From a virus (taxonomy: Duplodnaviria; Heunggongvirae; Uroviricota; Caudoviricetes): DNA of 5,418 nt. Shown here piece by piece: positions 1,796 through 5,418 of this stretch (position 1 is the stretch's first letter; each line of letters begins with the position of its first letter). The DNA is taken from IMG/VR virus record IMGVR_UViG_2541047960_000010; one strand, given 5' to 3'. The position numbers and the translations under genes are program-made. Below the pieces are notes generated by a model, which was given only the letters and a program-made list of their open reading frames with translations, had not been told where the DNA came from and searched no databases.

Positions 1796-2014
1796 TTACA
1801 ATCCCCATTGTTTGTTCTTAAGTTCGATCTCCTCCTGGCAACTTGCACAAGTCCGACAACCCTGAACGGCCAGGCGTCTTCGCTCATCTATGGGATCGCC
1901 ACACTCACAACAATGAGTGGCAGATATAGCCTGGTGGTTCAGGCGGCGCATTTTTATTGCTGTGTTGCGCTGTAATTCTTCAATTTCTGATGCTGAATCA
2001 ATGATGTCTGCCAT
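1796..2014 (-). CDS. DksA/TraR-family C4 zinc-finger protein (phage TraR-like regulator of host RNA polymerase)
   Basis: 72-aa ORF with a Cx2C-x(17)-Cx2C motif (CCECGDP...GCRTCASC) near the C-terminus, preceded by a helical N-terminal region. Size and motif arrangement match F-plasmid TraR and the lambda orf73 type. Confidence 0.8.
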   Translation of the reverse strand: MADIIDSASEIEELQRNTAIKMRRLNHQAISATHCCECGDPIDERRRLAVQGCRTCASCQEEIELKNKQWGL

Positions 2015-2073
2015 CTTCCATTAATCCCTGAATTGTTGGTTAATACGCTTGAGGGTGAATGCGAATAATAGAA

Positions 2074-2092
2074 AAGGAGCCTGTAGCTCCCT
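2074..2092 (-). terminator. Candidate intrinsic terminator or attenuator hairpin on the leftward transcript
   Basis: Minus-strand RNA reads AG-GGAGC-UACAG-GCUCC-UU followed by a U-rich tail (UUCUAUUAUU): a 5-bp GC-rich stem extendable to 7 bp with one G-U and one A-U pair, 5-nt loop. It sits 21 nt downstream of the 71-aa ORF stop and before the TraR-like gene. The stem is short, so this is weak. Confidence 0.25.
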
Positions 2093-2112
2093 GATGATTT
2101 TGCTTTTCATGT

Positions 2113-2328
2113 TCACCGTTCCTTAAAAACGCCGTTTAACATGCCGATCGCTAGGCTTAAATGAGTCGGTGTGAATCCCATCAGCGTTACCGTTTCGCGG
2201 TGCTTCTTCAGTACGCTACGGCAAATGTCATCGACGTTTTTATCCGGAAACTGCTGTCTGGCTTTTTTGATTTCACAATTAGCCTGACGGGCAATGCTGC
2301 GAAGGGCGTTATTATGTTCTATTGTCAT
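2113..2328 (-). CDS. Hypothetical small protein (71 aa), immediately downstream of the TGT-fold gene
   Basis: The six-frame track gives a 117-aa ORF (2113..2466), but its first 46 codons overlap the end of the 250-aa gene in another frame. The internal ATG at 2328 sits 7 nt after that gene's stop with GAGG spaced 5 nt (TGAGGCCAAT-ATG), so the 71-aa product MTIEHNNALRSIARQ... is the better model. Confidence 0.5.
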   Translation of the reverse strand: MTIEHNNALRSIARQANCEIKKARQQFPDKNVDDICRSVLKKHRETVTLMGFTPTHLSLAIGMLNGVFKER

Positions 2329-2335
2329 ATTGGCC

Positions 2336-3088
2336 TCACACTTCGAATGCCAGCTGAGGGGTAAAGACGTCCCGTTCAGCGTTGTAATTAAGTGAACTGG
2401 CACTGTTGAATGATTCAATGCGTTCCACAAGAACTTGCGTACGGGTTTCTTTACTTGCGGGAGCATATGGCGAACCTACCCAGGATTTGTCGATGCCTAT
2501 ATTTCTTGCGACGTTCGTGCTGTCTGCAGACGAAAGCGGTACATGAGTAAAAATGTCTTTATTTAACATCCGTAACCCATGAATCTTGGTGATTGGGTAG
2601 CCGTACTGATCTACAACATGACGTATAAGATCGCGTAGTTTAGCCCGACACGCTCTCGGTCGTTTTGCATCGTATTCCCCCATCGAGCCGATGCAGACGC
2701 GGGGAAACTCATGGCACAGACGAATAAATCGCTCATCTGGTTCGTTCATGTGCCACACCGGAGCACCAATAAATTTACCGTGAGGCCATGCCGCAATCAG
2801 GGCGTCATTCTCTTCACTGGTTCCGCCGATAACATCCGGGATAACCGCGAATGAGAAACGAGGGTGATTACCCCAGCGTTCAACAAATCTGTAATATTCA
2901 TTCCAGTCTACGGCCTTGTTTTTTGTCCAGAATGTGAATGCACCATTATCAAGAGCAAATGATTGGGTGACTTCGGAAGCCAGATCAATCTGAGCTGGAT
3001 TAGCAAAACTGATGAATGCGTGTCTGCCTTTCCAGGCTTTCAACGCACAGGTATCGGGAGTTATTGGACCACCGTGAAAATGAATCAT
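2336..3088 (-). CDS. TGT-fold (tRNA-guanine transglycosylase superfamily) protein lacking the zinc subdomain; putative DpdA-like DNA 7-deazaguanine transglycosylase
   Basis: 250-aa ORF, RBS GGGAGAG before the ATG at 3088. Motifs line up in order with the TGT TIM-barrel active-site elements of Zymomonas TGT: FALDNGAF vs LTDSGGYQ (Asp102 region), AVIPDV vs MAFDE (Asp156 region), CIGSMGEY vs AVGGLAVGE, and SSADSTNVARNIG vs MFDCVLPTRSGRNG (nucleophile Asp280 region). No CxCxxC...H zinc motif. The CDS call is solid; the functional assignment is by motif only. Confidence 0.6.
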   Translation of the reverse strand: MIHFHGGPITPDTCALKAWKGRHAFISFANPAQIDLASEVTQSFALDNGAFTFWTKNKAVDWNEYYRFVERWGNHPRFSFAVIPDVIGGTSEENDALIAAWPHGKFIGAPVWHMNEPDERFIRLCHEFPRVCIGSMGEYDAKRPRACRAKLRDLIRHVVDQYGYPITKIHGLRMLNKDIFTHVPLSSADSTNVARNIGIDKSWVGSPYAPASKETRTQVLVERIESFNSASSLNYNAERDVFTPQLAFEV

Positions 3089-3243
3089 ACACTCTCCCGT
3101 TTATTATTTATCTCCTCAGCCAGTCGCTGGGCTTTCAGCGGATTTCGGATAACAGAAGGCCCGGGAAATACCCAGCCTCGCTTTGTAACGGAGTAGACGA
3201 AAGTGATCGCACCTACCCGGATATTATCGTGAGGATGCTTCAT
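3085..3243 (-). CDS. Small ORF (52 aa) translationally coupled between exo and the TGT-fold gene; in the position of lambda orf60a
   Basis: Not in the supplied ORF track (too short). Its ATG (3243..3241) overlaps the exo stop as ATGA, and its TGA (3087..3085) overlaps the next gene's ATG as ATGA. Translation: [52 protein letters not shown]. An in-frame ATG two codons upstream (3249) is an alternative start. Confidence 0.5.
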
Positions 3244-3920
3244 CGCCATTGCTCCCCAAATACAAAACCAATTTCAGCCAGTGCCTCGTCCATTTTTTCG
3301 ATGAACTCCGGCACCATCTCGTCAAAACTCGCCATGTACTTTTCATCCCGCTCAACCACGACATAATGCAGTCCTTCACGCTTCATACGCGGGTCATAGT
3401 TGGCAAAGTACCAGGCATCTTTTCGCGTCACCCACATGCTGTACTGCACCTGGGCCATGTAAGCTGACTTTATGGCCTCGAAACCACCGAGCCGGAACTT
3501 CATGAAATCCCGGGAGGTAAACGGGCATTTCAGTTCAAGGCCGTTGCCGTCACTGCATAAACCATCTGGAGAGCAGGCGGTACGCATACTTTCGTCGCGA
3601 TAGATGATCGGGGATTCAGTAACATTCACGCCGGAAGTGAACTCAAACAGGGCTCTGGCGTCGTTCTCGTACTGTTTTCCCCAGGCCAGCGCTTTAGCGT
3701 TAACTTCCGGAGCCACACCGGTGCAAACCTCAGCAAGCAGGGTGTGGAAGTAGGACATTTTCATGTCAGGCCACTTTTTTCCGGAGCGGGGTTTTGCTAT
3801 TACGTTATGAACTTCTGAAGCTGTGATGACGCCGAGCCGTAATTTGTACCACGCATCATCCCCCTGTTCGACAGCTCTCACGTCGATCCCGGTACGCTGC
3901 AGGATAATGTCCGGTGTCAT
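3240..3920 (-). CDS. exo: Lambda exonuclease (Red-alpha), 5'-3' dsDNA exonuclease
   Basis: 226-aa ORF whose translation ([24 protein letters not shown]...[11 protein letters not shown]) matches phage lambda Exo in length and nearly residue for residue, as recalled. Start ATG overlaps the bet stop (ATGA). Confidence 0.95.
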
Positions 3921-4702
3921 GCTGCCACCTTCTGCTCTGCGGCTTTCTGTTTCAGGAATCCAAGAGCTTTTACTGCTTCGGCCTGTGTCAGTTCTGACGA
4001 TGCGCGAATGTCGCGGCGAAATATCTGGGAACAGAGCGGCAATAAGTCGTCATCCCATGTTTTGTCCAGGGCAATCAGCAGAGTGTTAATCTCCTGCATG
4101 GTTTCATCGTTAACCGGAGTGATGTCGCGTTCCGGCTGGCGTTCTGCAGTGTATGCGGTATTTTCGACAATGCGCTCGGCTTCATCCTTGTCATAGATAC
4201 CAGCAAATCCGAAGGCCAGGCGGGCACACTGAATCATGGCTTTATGCCGTAACATCCGTTTGGGATGCGACTGCCACGGGCCGGTGATTTCTCTGCCTTC
4301 GCGGGTTTTGCATGGTTCGCGGCGGCATTCATCCATCCACTCGGTAACGCAGATCGGATGATTGCGGTCTTTGCGGTAAATCCGGCATGTACATGATTCA
4401 TTGTCCTGCTCAAAGTCCATACCATCAAACTGCTGGTTTTCATTGATGATGCGGGACCAGCCATCAACGCCCACCACCGGAACAATGCCGTTCTGCTTAT
4501 CAGGGAAGGCGTAAATTTCTTTCGTCCACGGATTAAGGCCGTACTGGTTGGCGACGATCAACAATGCGATGAACTGCGCATCGCTGGCATCACCTTTAAA
4601 TGCCGTCTGGCGAAGAGTGGTGATCAGTTCCTGTGGGTCGACAGAATCCATGCCGACACGTTCAGCCAGCTTCCCTGCCAGCGTTGCGAGTGCTGTACTC
4701 AT
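3917..4702 (-). CDS. bet: Lambda Beta (Red-beta) single-strand annealing protein
   Basis: 261-aa ORF ([59 protein letters not shown]...) matches lambda Bet in length and sequence as recalled. Sits between gam and exo as in lambda. Confidence 0.95.
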
Positions 4703-4707
4703 CCGTT

Positions 4708-5004
4708 TTATACCTCTGAATCAATATCAGCCTGATGGTGAGCAATGGTTTCAACTATGTACCGGATGTGTTCTGCCATGCGCTCCTGAAACTCAACATC
4801 GTCATCAAACGCACGGGTAATGGCTTTTTTGCTGGCCCCGTGGCGTTGTAAATGATCGATGCATAGCGATTCAAACAGGTGCTGGGGCAGGCCTTTTTCC
4901 ATGTCGTCTGCCAGTTCTGCCTCTTTCTCTTCACGGGCGATCTGCTGGTAGTGACGCGCCCAGCTCTGAGCCTCAAGACGATCCTGAATGTAATAAGCGT
5001 TCAT
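4708..5004 (-). CDS. gam: Gam, host RecBCD nuclease inhibitor (short 98-aa form)
   Basis: 98-aa [24 protein letters not shown]... matches the C-terminal 98 residues of lambda Gam. RBS AGGAG 7 nt upstream of the ATG. The region upstream still encodes ...IFRSSAM in frame (lambda has ...YFRSSAM) but is closed by an in-frame TAA at 5061..5059, so only the short form can be made. Confidence 0.9.
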
Positions 5005-5079
5005 GGCTGAACTCCTGAAAATGGCTGTGAAAATATCGCCCGCGAAATGCCAGGCTGATTAGGAAAACAGGAAAGGGGG

Positions 5080-5223
5080 TTAGTGAATGCTTTTGCTTGA
5101 TCTCAGTTTCAGTATTAATATCCATTTTTTATAAGCGTCGACGGCCTCACGAAACATCTTTTCATCGCCAATAAAAGTGGCGATAGTGAATTTAGTCTGG
5201 ATAGCCATAATTGTTTGATCCAT
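5080..5223 (-). CDS. kil: Kil, host cell-division (FtsZ) inhibitor, 47 aa
   Basis: The supplied 87-aa ORF starts with a TTG and its first 40 codons are the cIII region read in another frame. From the internal ATG at 5223 the product [47 protein letters not shown] matches lambda Kil (47 aa) as recalled. AGGAG lies upstream. Confidence 0.85.
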
Positions 5224-5343
5224 TTTTGGGGACTCCTGGCTGATTGAGTATGTCGATAAGGCGTTTCCATCCGTCACGTAATTTACGGGTGATTCGTTCA
5301 AGTAAAGATTCGGAAGGGCAGCCAGCAACAGGCCACCCTGCAA
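5192..5343 (-). pseudogene. cIII: cIII remnant: 5'-truncated by IS insertion, start codon and RBS lost
   Basis: Minus-strand frame overlapping the kil start translates to [50 protein letters not shown]-stop, which matches lambda CIII from residue 5 to the end (lambda begins MQYAIAGW...). Upstream of the Ile codon the sequence becomes the IS terminus, and no ATG, GTG or TTG exists in frame before the upstream stop at 5371..5369. The junction position is uncertain by about 1 nt. Confidence 0.7.
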
Positions 5344-5418
5344 TGAACCGCCCCGGGAATCCTGGAGACTAAACTTCCTGAGAAAGAGGTAAACAGGATG
5401 ACTAAAAATACTCGTTTT
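5344..5418 (+). mobile_element. Left end of an IS3-family insertion sequence (IS629 / IS1203 / IS3411-like), continuing beyond the window
   Basis: Sequence from 5344 (TGAACCGCCCCGGGAATCCTGGAGACTAAACTTCCTGAGAAAGAGGTAAACAGG-ATG...) matches my recollection of the IS629-group terminal inverted repeat (IS3-family 5'-TG terminus) followed by the orfA RBS and start. It begins exactly where homology to lambda cIII stops. Confidence 0.75.
5398..5418 (+). CDS. IS3-family transposase OrfA, N-terminal 7 codons only (truncated by window end)
   Basis: ATG at 5398 preceded by AAGAGG at about 8 nt. Encodes MTKNTRF, the characteristic N-terminus of IS629-group OrfA (MTKNTRFSPEV...). Confidence 0.7.

Follow-up and report, generated by a model that had tools for sequence, protein, structure and literature searches.

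The stretch of DNA analysed here, in the following called the window, comprises 5,418 nucleotides of a virus of the Caudoviricetes (IMG/VR record IMGVR_UViG_2541047960_000010). The gene order is exo, orf60a (DUF1317), a gene for a protein of 250 amino acids, orf61, an open reading frame of 31 codons, orf73 (zf-dskA_traR), DUF4222, xis, and int. The coordinates of the features around orf61 are collected in Table 1.

Table 1: Features of the window in the neighbourhood of orf61.
Feature	Position	Strand	Basis and remarks
orf73 orthologue, 72 amino acids, TraR/DksA-type zinc finger	1796..2014	minus	zf-dskA_traR, E 1.2e-8; phrog_54, E 1.2e-25
Open reading frame of 31 codons	2021..2116	minus	GTG start overlaps the orf61 stop (GTGA); contains the t2 hairpin
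t2 hairpin with T-rich tail	2064..2092	minus	Terminator-like pattern scan; predicted terminator of the lambda/phi24B exo-xis region
orf61 orthologue, 71 amino acids	2113..2328	minus	MTIEHNNALRS...GVFKER; small basic protein, three predicted helices
A6 run in orf61, codons 20-23 (ATC AAA AAA GCC)	2263..2268	minus	Reference lambda has A7
Foreign mosaic segment, 775 bp	2311..3085	minus	blastn against lambda and VT2-Sakai
GAGG ribosome binding site of orf61	2334..2337	minus	Sequence read; overlaps the TGA of the 250 amino acid gene, 5 nt from the ATG
DpdA-like gene, 250 amino acids, annotated 'queuine tRNA-ribosyltransferase'	2336..3088	minus	phrog_887, E 4e-99
orf60a orthologue (DUF1317), 54 amino acids	3085..3249	minus	Pfam DUF1317, E 1.5e-32

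The smaller gene of interest runs from an ATG at 2328-2326 to a TGA at 2115-2113, which makes 71 codons on the minus strand. The TGA of the 250 amino acid gene occupies 2338-2336, leaving a spacer of 7 nucleotides (2335-2329). Both this spacer and the GAGG ribosome binding site, to which an earlier note on this DNA had drawn attention, are seen in the sequence. The same note had mistrusted the mechanical call of 117 amino acids (2113-2466), and rightly so, since the extra N-terminal part overlaps the last 131 nucleotides of the 250 amino acid gene in another frame. Homologues with 33-48% identity are 68-78 amino acids long and align from residue 1 to residue 71, which indicates that the annotations with 117 amino acids in SfI, where the same gene is gp33, and with 93 amino acids in Stx phages are over-extended; a third length found in the databases is the 61 amino acids of the frameshifted lambda protein. 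These alignments and a match of the 71 amino acid protein to phrog_303 over residues 1-71 (E 4.3e-34) show that the gene is real and that its start had been chosen correctly. As judged from the alignments, the native length of the Orf61 family is about 71 amino acids. Short open reading frames are also present on the plus strand antisense to orf61, for instance at 2161-2364.

By sequence comparison the 71 amino acid reading frame is an intact, full-length orthologue of lambda and Stx phage orf61, an already known gene of the 'exo-xis region'. The protein is 93% identical to VT2-Sakai orf10 over the core of 71 amino acids and 100% identical to lambda over residues 21-71, and the VT2-Sakai orf10 annotation itself reads 'similar to orf61 protein of bacteriophage lambda'. 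The gene had been put forward as unannotated and as belonging to no recognised family. It is in fact annotated in SfI, in VT2-Sakai, and in RefSeq E. coli genomes, where the 71 amino acid form is labelled 'hypothetical protein' or 'cell division protein ZapA', and phrog_303 provides the family. An exhaustive HMMER search yielded 62 cluster representatives of the Orf61 family. The 'Orf61' of VP882 (PMC9239242) was rejected as a relative, being an unrelated TraR homologue which shares the name only.

One peculiarity of the reference phage has to be kept in mind. The run of seven adenines in reference lambda causes a frameshift and a truncated Orf61. The run of six is found in 151 loci and the run of seven in 15, all of which are lambda J02459 or lambda DNA within unrelated assemblies. 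Experiments on lambda 'Orf61', as well as lambda-based two-hybrid data, therefore probably concern a defective protein. A scan of genome contigs yielded for the most part lambda DNA present as a contaminant in unrelated assemblies, and no informative context.

Downstream of orf61 the terminator-like hairpin described by the earlier note is present at 2092-2074, with 8 pairs and a loop of 3 nucleotides followed by TTTTCTATTATT. Its fold is unremarkable (z = -1.7 in a context of 76 nucleotides), and matches to the terminator-like pattern across the whole window numbered 15 as compared with 5.6 +/- 2.3 expected. The terminator tL3 of lambda, known from constructs of the pKD46 type, lies just after exo. 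Identity of the present hairpin with tL3 was considered and rejected, since the published t1 is a hairpin inside orf60a and the hairpin following orf61 is the published t2. Its sequence, CAAAATCATCAGGGAGCTACAGGCTCCTTTTCTATTATT, equals t2 of Table 4 in PMC4195576 except for one T to C exchange in the tail, and it lies inside a backbone segment common to lambda and Sakai. The 31-codon reading frame exists in SfI in a form of 29 amino acids as gp32, and lambda encodes the same peptide sequence; according to a review, ribosome profiling detected a 31 amino acid peptide from this lambda region (PMC8614690). The usual downstream neighbour of orf61 is orf73, the product of which in lambda is reported to bind RNA polymerase and to inhibit rRNA promoters (PMC9239242). 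An Rfam search of the whole window gave no match.

The protein encoded upstream of orf61 shares 36-44% identity with other phage proteins. With tblastn it matched Salmonella phage 7-11 (36% identity, E 1e-27), a phage which is listed among those with DpdA only (PMC6884629). In a single case, Caulobacter phage DMCA, a 6-carboxytetrahydropterin synthase (QueD-type) gene directly precedes the homologue. Neither Pfam, including TGT (PF01702), nor NCBIfam gave a match at E <= 1, and no PDB sequence was matched by the single sequence or by a profile of six sequences. The structural model of the protein (pLDDT 69) consists of alternating beta and alpha elements, and Foldseek retrieved generic TIM barrels for it (best E 3.7e-3, TM about 0.45), the first 50 hits including neither TGT nor DpdA. 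The PADLOC defence models matched neither the 71 amino acid nor the 250 amino acid protein.

How the two genes came to be neighbours can be read from the mosaic structure of the region. In blastn comparisons the window has about 97% identity to Sakai and lambda at positions 1819-2310 and 3086-5345, and the sequence between these two blocks found no match. Apart from the 250 amino acid gene and the 7-nucleotide spacer, the intervening segment contains nothing but codons 1-6 of orf61, and it stands in place of orf63 and a small reading frame of 27 codons. At the other end, the junction at 3085/3086 alters the C-terminal codons of orf60a as compared with orf60a of lambda and Sakai. After every homologue of the 250 amino acid gene examined, a stop codon and GG are followed by the next ATG 7-13 nucleotides further on, whatever the downstream gene. 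These observations show that a module with the DpdA-like gene has displaced orf63 and the 27-codon reading frame upstream of orf61, and that this replacement joined the stop-overlapping ribosome binding site of the module and six new codons to orf61. The two genes are thus most likely adjacent by modular recombination, through the loss of the usual neighbour of orf61, rather than as a dedicated pair.

A structure prediction for the 71 amino acid product, which had been suggested as a check, gave a confident three-helix AF2 model (pLDDT 89; helices 3-26, 32-49, and 54-64), and the fold search with this model yielded no significant hit. The top matches did not include a homeodomain or helix-turn-helix protein, and searches of this kind separate small helical folds poorly. 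A likeness of GFTPTHLSLAIGMLN to ankyrin repeats was dismissed, since the weak PDB matches arose from summation over repeats and WD40 and Cys-rich repeat proteins scored similarly; nor is the GFTPTHL stretch, which recalls the ankyrin TPLH-type motif, conserved across the Orf61 family. The small basic three-helix bundle shows no catalytic features and thus most likely acts by binding DNA or protein. Orf61 may bind such a putative DNA or protein partner early after infection or induction.

Functional information comes from the orthologues. Deletion of orf61 in phi24B and lambda led to more lysogens, more surviving cells, and a delayed or weaker prophage induction (PMC6213356, PMC8614690). The phenotypes were modest in lambda, and the authors of the deletion study did not exclude polar or cis effects (PMC6213356). 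On the strength of these phenotypes the product can be called 'pro-lytic', a modulator of the choice between lysis and lysogeny. Our main reading, to which we assign a probability of roughly 80%, is that the gene in the window is an orthologue of orf61, a conserved, non-essential, pro-lytic backbone gene of the leftward early (pL) operon in lambdoid phages, which came to lie beside the 250 amino acid gene through modular recombination. Orf61 then probably has no part in the chemistry or specificity of the 250 amino acid enzyme.

The competing proposal, made in the earlier note, was a self-contained cassette in which the 71 amino acid protein serves the DpdA-like enzyme as a dedicated partner, as an inhibitor, or as a subunit conferring specificity. 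It can point to the 7-nucleotide spacer and to the ribosome binding site overlapping the stop codon, and in E. coli the 250 amino acid allele indeed always adjoins orf61 (100 of 100 genomes, all at least 99% identical), a uniformity which fits a single recent module and is still compatible with cooperation. In Cronobacter prophages a 90% identical 250 amino acid gene is located one gene upstream of an Orf61 homologue with 46% identity. The check for co-occurrence across phages and prophages, however, spoke against a pair. Complete E. coli genomes, 5,426 in number, contain orf61 in 3,247 cases (about 60%) and the 250 amino acid gene in 100, and from about 197 phage records encoding the 71 amino acid protein 3 have both genes. 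The 250 amino acid gene is thus missing beside about 97% of the orf61 copies in E. coli and from about 98% of the orf61 phage records. Homologues of the 250 amino acid gene, in turn, are found in at least five other genomic positions. They precede unrelated genes in Eeyore, BTP1, RothD, Vibrio D453, and HK106 (an exonuclease, EaA, Ea22-like, and other unrelated genes), they occur within the nin region of Hafnia prophages without an Orf61 neighbour, they lack this neighbour in most Yersinia loci, and in seven E. coli-type loci they are situated about 0.7-0.9 kb downstream of orf61. The breakpoint at 2310/2311 leaves all but six codons of orf61, together with the hairpin, in the backbone, so the foreign module does not contain both genes; the hairpin belongs to the backbone of lambda and Sakai, and the tight spacing is the same whichever gene follows. 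In addition, DpdA of phage 9g is reported to insert dPreQ0 into DNA when it is the only such protein expressed in E. coli (PMC6884629). A paper on the WASA-1 prophage was considered as a precedent for two such genes and discarded, its mentions of DpdA referring to escape mutants of another phage. With this evidence a dedicated partnership appears very improbable. Even less credence can be given to the product being a ZapA-type cell division protein, as the NCBI name suggests. This name is carried by many RefSeq/NCBI homologues, and three out of 20 family members gave sub-threshold scores with Pfam ZapA, the best at E 0.041, but the protein of the window has no Pfam or NCBIfam match even at E <= 1, the family profile found no ZapA among the PDB sequences, and fold searches with the 71 amino acid model revealed no ZapA-like fold.

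Two further explanations are to be weighed against an orf61 whose company is a matter of recombination, the reading preferred here. Orf61 could modulate site-specific recombination by Int and Xis, disfavouring integration or aiding excision, which would supply a mechanism for the 'pro-lytic' phenotype, and more lysogens and delayed induction upon deletion are changes in the expected direction. In 54 of 58 loci from two divergent branches Orf61 is directly followed by a gene of excisionase type and then by int, the excisionase genes representing three or more Pfam types (HTH_17, DUF1233, and Exc); Yersinia and Hafnia loci have the Orf61-excisionase-int arrangement too, and a yeast two-hybrid interaction of lambda orf61 with Int is cited in PMC6213356. 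The relevance of the latter is doubtful, because it was obtained with the allele of lambda, in which a frameshift and probably a wrong start are present. Between orf61 and xis, moreover, lie orf73 and other genes in lambda, the Stx phages, and the window, the adjacency elsewhere may be positional, and searches with Orf61 detected no similarity to known recombination directionality factors. We consider this mechanism unlikely. The other explanation takes the Orf61 family as generic accessories of phage DNA-modification modules, be it with methyltransferases or with DpdA, joined in many lineages by a tiny hydrophobic peptide whose gene abuts the Orf61 start. Such an accessory could render a promiscuous DNA-modifying enzyme safe or effective when a temperate phage expresses it, and might do so by blocking modification-dependent restriction or by shielding particular phage sites. 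Upstream of divergent Orf61 genes a DNA methyltransferase gene is indeed often found, from five unrelated families (Dam PF05869, D12 PF02086, MT-A70 PF05063, C5 PF00145, and phrog_757) that occur directly upstream, as the DpdA-like gene does in the window; the methyltransferase and Orf61 genes often overlap by 4 nucleotides or are 1-2 nucleotides apart. Two divergent Orf61 lineages are each combined with three different methyltransferase families. A modification gene is present within about 3 kb upstream in 62 of 83 divergent loci, which lack phylogenetic independence, and 45 of 80 upstream modification genes are located at most 160 nucleotides from the Orf61 start. Dam replaces orf63 in 40 of the 168 E. 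coli-type viral loci. Most of these E. coli-type copies (115 of 168), on the other hand, follow orf63 and have no modification gene, and some divergent copies follow an exonuclease, endonuclease VII, ClpX-type zinc finger, or DksA-like gene or are without an upstream gene on the same strand. The fold gives no biochemical clue to DNA modification, and the pattern could be positional, with accessory genes varying at a site ahead of a constant orf61-xis-int end of the operon. We therefore consider the accessory reading, including the role just outlined, improbable on balance. The broader link of Orf61 to DNA modification remains a lead, as the plain view of an unrelated backbone gene leaves the pattern unexplained by itself; if the link were true, the pair in the window would exemplify a wider functional connection that has not been described before.

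For the small gene this means that it has been described before and is very common among prophages, and that the proposed cassette of enzyme and partner was a false lead. Of use for work on the exo-xis region are the native length of 71 amino acids, the defective A7 allele of lambda, and the finding that the name 'ZapA' is unsupported. DNA-modification genes have landed repeatedly in the slot before orf61, and should the modification link prove functional, it would give a first insight into the mechanism of a gene which about 60% of the complete E. coli genomes carry.

Compared with known systems, ZapA (Pfam PF05164) and Orf61 are both small and largely helical, a likeness which sequence and structure searches do not extend to the name. 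For Orf61 of phi24B a homeodomain-like three-helix DNA-binding fold has been proposed (PMC8614690), and the model of the window protein likewise has three helices. In being 'DpdA-only', the lambdoid copies of the 250 amino acid gene resemble a group reported in PMC6884629. In known 7-deazaguanine systems the partner genes adjoin dpdA, as orf61 adjoins the DpdA-like gene here; in the bacterial Dpd system dpdA reportedly acts together with dpdB and dpdC (PMC10164549). Unlike the DpdA partners, Orf61 is a helical protein of 71 amino acids without a nucleotide-binding or catalytic motif and is usually without a DpdA-like neighbour. The closest counterparts are the lambdoid Orf61 proteins (lambda orf61, phi24B vb_24B_7c, VT2-Sakai orf10; phrog_303). 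Where lambda and Sakai carry orf63 and the 27-codon reading frame upstream of orf61, the window carries the 250 amino acid gene, and the first six codons read MTIEHN in place of MTPQQE, differing because they were supplied by the inserted module. The hairpin t2 downstream is common to Stx phage orf61 and the window, and with the lambdoid genes the orf61 of the window shares both the family and the position in the pL operon, between orf60a/orf63 and orf73.

The ORF in question, 71 codons long, is the already known and described orf61 gene. The earlier note had recognised no family for it, but its product matches phrog_303 (E 4e-34) and is 93% identical to VT2-Sakai orf10, annotated as 'similar to orf61 protein of bacteriophage lambda'. 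The window contains the leftward early arm of a lambdoid prophage, with all genes on the minus strand, and its nearest public phage is Shigella phage SfI (98.7% identity across 1990-3260).

Features of the window around orf61
Feature	Position	Strand	Remark
int	1-1143	minus	
xis	1133-1369	minus	
DUF4222 protein	1509-1748	minus	
TraR/DksA-type zinc-finger protein	1796-2014	minus	72 aa
31-codon ORF	2021-2116	minus	
terminator-like hairpin	2092-2074		T-rich tail
orf61	2113-2328	minus	71 codons; ATG 2328-2326, TGA 2115-2113
mechanical 117-aa ORF	2113-2466		
GAGG	2337-2334		5 nt from orf61 ATG
250-aa gene	2336-3088	minus	TGA 2338-2336
DUF1317 protein (orf60a)	3085-3249	minus	
second terminator-like hairpin	3161-3175	minus	within orf60a
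exo, bet, gam	3240-5004	minus	
IS3-family element end	~5346-5418	plus	ORF beginning MTKNTRF at 5398

Similarity to VT2-Sakai and SfI stops at 5345. What follows corresponds to one end of an IS3-family element that thousands of E. coli records label 'IS3 family transposase', so such an element interrupts the operon at its kil/cIII end. The second hairpin, CTGGGTATTTCCCGG followed by GCCTTCTGTT, lies just past exo and is presumably lambda tL3. It closely matches the predicted t1 of the lambda/phi24B exo-xis region (PMC4195576). Lambda orf73, which encodes a TraR homologue that reportedly binds RNA polymerase and represses rRNA promoters (PMC9239242), has its orthologue in the 72-aa gene 3' of orf61. 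The GTG start of the 31-codon ORF overlaps the orf61 stop (GTGA), and the t2 hairpin lies inside this ORF; the identical peptide is encoded in lambda, a 29-aa form is annotated in SfI, and ribosome profiling, as cited in a review (PMC8614690), picked up a 31-aa peptide from this stretch of lambda.

The 71-aa start proposed in the earlier note is strongly supported by family length and end-to-end alignment, as relatives with 33-48% identity recovered in an exhaustive HMMER search measure 68-78 aa and align over the whole of residues 1-71. The 117-aa call, which the note had also considered probably wrong, extends 131 nt into the 250-aa gene in a different frame, and the 7-nt spacer between the two genes, the GAGG ribosome binding site overlapping the upstream stop and the hairpin 3' of orf61 are all present as described. 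Because the 68-78-aa relatives align over residues 1-71, the annotations of SfI gp33 (117 aa) and of the Stx-phage proteins (93 aa) are over-extended. In the RefSeq record of SfI (L002) gp33 (2624-2977) overlaps gp34, the 250-aa gene (2847-3599), by 131 nt; judged from the length and alignment of the family, its start should be the internal Met, yielding 71 aa.

Between orf63 (or Dam) and orf61 a hydrophobic ORF of 27 codons (MTTTECIFLAAGFIFCVLMLADMGLVQ) is found in lambda (L001 ~2360-2445) and in VT2-Sakai (L003), and reading it out of frame gives the N-terminal extension annotated for orf61 in lambda and the Sakai/Stx phages. In 150 loci it overlaps both neighbours through ATGA, its ATG the stop of the gene upstream and its own stop the true orf61 ATG. 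It is missing from the window, where 2311-3085 stands in its place. In 23 of 58 divergent loci the Orf61 start adjoins an unrelated hydrophobic ORF of 29-36 aa.

Reference lambda (J02459) carries seven adenines at ~30839-30867 (L001 ~2500-2530) where the window has six (2263-2268, minus strand). Lambda Orf61 is therefore frameshifted and its annotated 61-aa product truncated; translation of lambda yields residues 21-71 at 100% identity just past the annotated orf61, in another frame. Six adenines occur in 151 loci, the window included, and seven in 15, which comprise J02459 and lambda DNA in unrelated genome assemblies. That lambda Orf61 'appears to be truncated' when set beside its Stx-phage counterparts had already been remarked in a review (PMC8614690). 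It is probably a defective allele that was used in the lambda experiments and two-hybrid data published for 'Orf61'. The lambda DNA with seven adenines in about 14 species-representative assemblies of unrelated bacteria (L015-L028; Shewanella, Pseudomonas, Kitasatospora, Oceanobacillus and others, several on contigs of ~48.4 kb) is almost certainly spike-in or laboratory contamination.

The earlier note had proposed the 71-aa product as partner or specificity factor of the 250-aa gene in a two-gene cassette. The evidence says no: the pair seldom co-occurs, the module breakpoint lies inside orf61, and homologues of the 250-aa gene are placed elsewhere. Among ~197 phage records encoding the orf61 protein only 3 have the pair, and in 5,426 complete E. 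coli genomes orf61 is present in 3,247 (4,398 copies) versus 100 for the 250-aa gene. These 100 copies are all at least 99% identical and keep the orf61 junction in every case, as expected for one recent module. The window is ~97% identical to lambda and Sakai over 1819-2310 and 3086-5345, which leaves 2311-3085 as the sole foreign stretch; what came in with the module is therefore the 250-aa gene, the spacer carrying the ribosome binding site and six codons (MTIEHN for MTPQQE), displacing orf63 and the 27-codon ORF. Mosaic replacement of orf63 would thus have brought orf61 beside the DpdA-like gene. The hairpin 3' of orf61 belongs to the shared lambda/Sakai backbone and is identical to t2 except for one T>C in the tail; t2 is a predicted terminator that separates orf61 from orf73 in both lambda and phi24B, and lambda transcripts drop downstream of it (PMC4195576).

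In all 250-aa homologues examined GG comes after the stop and another ATG 7-13 nt further downstream, regardless of whether an exonuclease (Eeyore), eaA (BTP1), an Ea22-like gene (RothD) or a 61-aa gene (a Vibrio phage) begins there; the exception is HK106, with a gap of 57 nt. No Orf61 relative is encoded in these five phage loci, nor near the homologue in most Yersinia loci. Hafnia prophages carry a 78%-identical homologue in the nin region, and a 67-68%-identical one lies 0.7-0.9 kb downstream of orf61 in seven viral loci of the E. coli type. At least five positions in temperate phage genomes were found (window 2336-3088; L004-L008, L206-L222, L080, L084, L127, L133, L137, L144, L184), namely directly, one gene or ~2 kb upstream of orf61, downstream near Ea22-like genes, and in the nin region. 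The family behaves as a freely moving single-gene module.

The 'TGT-fold' label given to the 250-aa gene is less secure than the name implies. In its favour are a match to phrog_887 ('queuine tRNA-ribosyltransferase', E 4e-99), 36-44% identity to other phage proteins, one of them in Salmonella phage 7-11, and a homologue directly after a QueD-type gene in Caulobacter phage DMCA. On the other side, as evidence against it or neutral, no match was obtained in Pfam, NCBIfam or PADLOC, nor to PDB sequences even with a profile, and a model of moderate confidence (pLDDT 69) with alternating beta/alpha elements matches only generic TIM barrels. The family has more than 6,000 proteins, named 'hypothetical protein' by NCBI throughout and with a Pfam domain in none. 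Nor is a partner needed: DpdA of phage 9g, when it is the only one expressed in E. coli, is reported to insert dPreQ0 into DNA, and a 'DpdA-only' group of 76 phages is believed to draw on host preQ0 (PMC6884629).

A functional link of Orf61 to DNA modification has a low probability, although in divergent branches the gene directly 5' is often a DNA methyltransferase of one of several unrelated families, in many cases overlapping Orf61 by 4 nt or ending 1-2 nt short of it: a C5 cytosine methylase (Klebsiella L009), a phrog_757 methyltransferase (Klebsiella L011), D12 (Yersinia L010, Hafnia-type L198), MT-A70 (L032, L200, Cronobacter L218-L222) or Dam (L115, L199). Dam, MT-A70 or D12 stands directly upstream in 30 of another 58 loci, drawn from two divergent lineages of Orf61, each lineage occurring with all three. 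A modification gene lies within ~3 kb upstream in 62 of 83 divergent loci, and 45 of 80 such genes are at most 160 nt from the Orf61 start; the loci behind these counts are not independent samples. Other loci, however, have a YqaJ exonuclease, endonuclease VII, a ClpX-type zinc-finger protein, a DksA-like protein or small unknown proteins in this place, or no same-strand gene at all. E. coli-type viral loci with an upstream ORF (n=168) have orf63 in 115 and a Dam-type methyltransferase (PF05869) instead in 40. A functional link to Int/Xis is likewise improbable; an excisionase-type gene (HTH_17, DUF1233, Exc) followed by int lies downstream in 54 of 58 divergent loci. The simplest reading is positional: temperate phages park modification genes in a variable accessory slot before Orf61, which would form the constant end of the operon, far from the promoter and immediately ahead of xis-int or, in lambda-like phages, of orf73. 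The slot itself recurrently holds Dam (PF05869), D12, MT-A70, C5 methylase, phrog_757 and DpdA-like genes, often in tandem (L009-L011, L032, L115, L198-L200, L217-L222, L224-L297, window 2336-3088).

The AlphaFold2 model of the orf61 product, built with 20 diverse homologues, is confident (pLDDT 89) and predicts helices at 3-26, 32-49 and 54-64; N7, A13, G51, G62, N65 and G66 are conserved in the family. With 12 Lys/Arg versus 7 Asp/Glu the product is basic. The name 'cell division protein ZapA' in NCBI/RefSeq (e.g. P0001, VT2-Sap10) found no support from Pfam, NCBIfam or fold searches; sub-threshold ZapA matches occur in 3 of 20 family members (best E 0.041), and the name looks like a propagated misannotation. 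An ankyrin-like motif that gave rise to weak PDB matches was dismissed as repeat-summation noise lacking conservation in the family.

Specialists may find use for the side observations that the true length is 71 aa, that laboratory lambda is frameshifted, that the ZapA name lacks support, that a small hydrophobic ORF is present in lambda and Sakai, and that a hot spot for modification genes lies upstream of Orf61. In published work orf61 is a member of the 'exo-xis region', transcribed early from pL. Its deletion in phi24B, and more weakly in lambda, increased lysogenisation and host survival and delayed or weakened prophage induction, and in phi24B it impaired adsorption; purification of Orf61 failed, and the authors left cis effects possible (PMC6213356). 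A review classed orf61 as pro-lytic and predicted that residues 24-93, as numbered in the phi24B annotation, adopt a three-helix fold resembling a homeodomain (PMC8614690); these residues are the 71-aa core.
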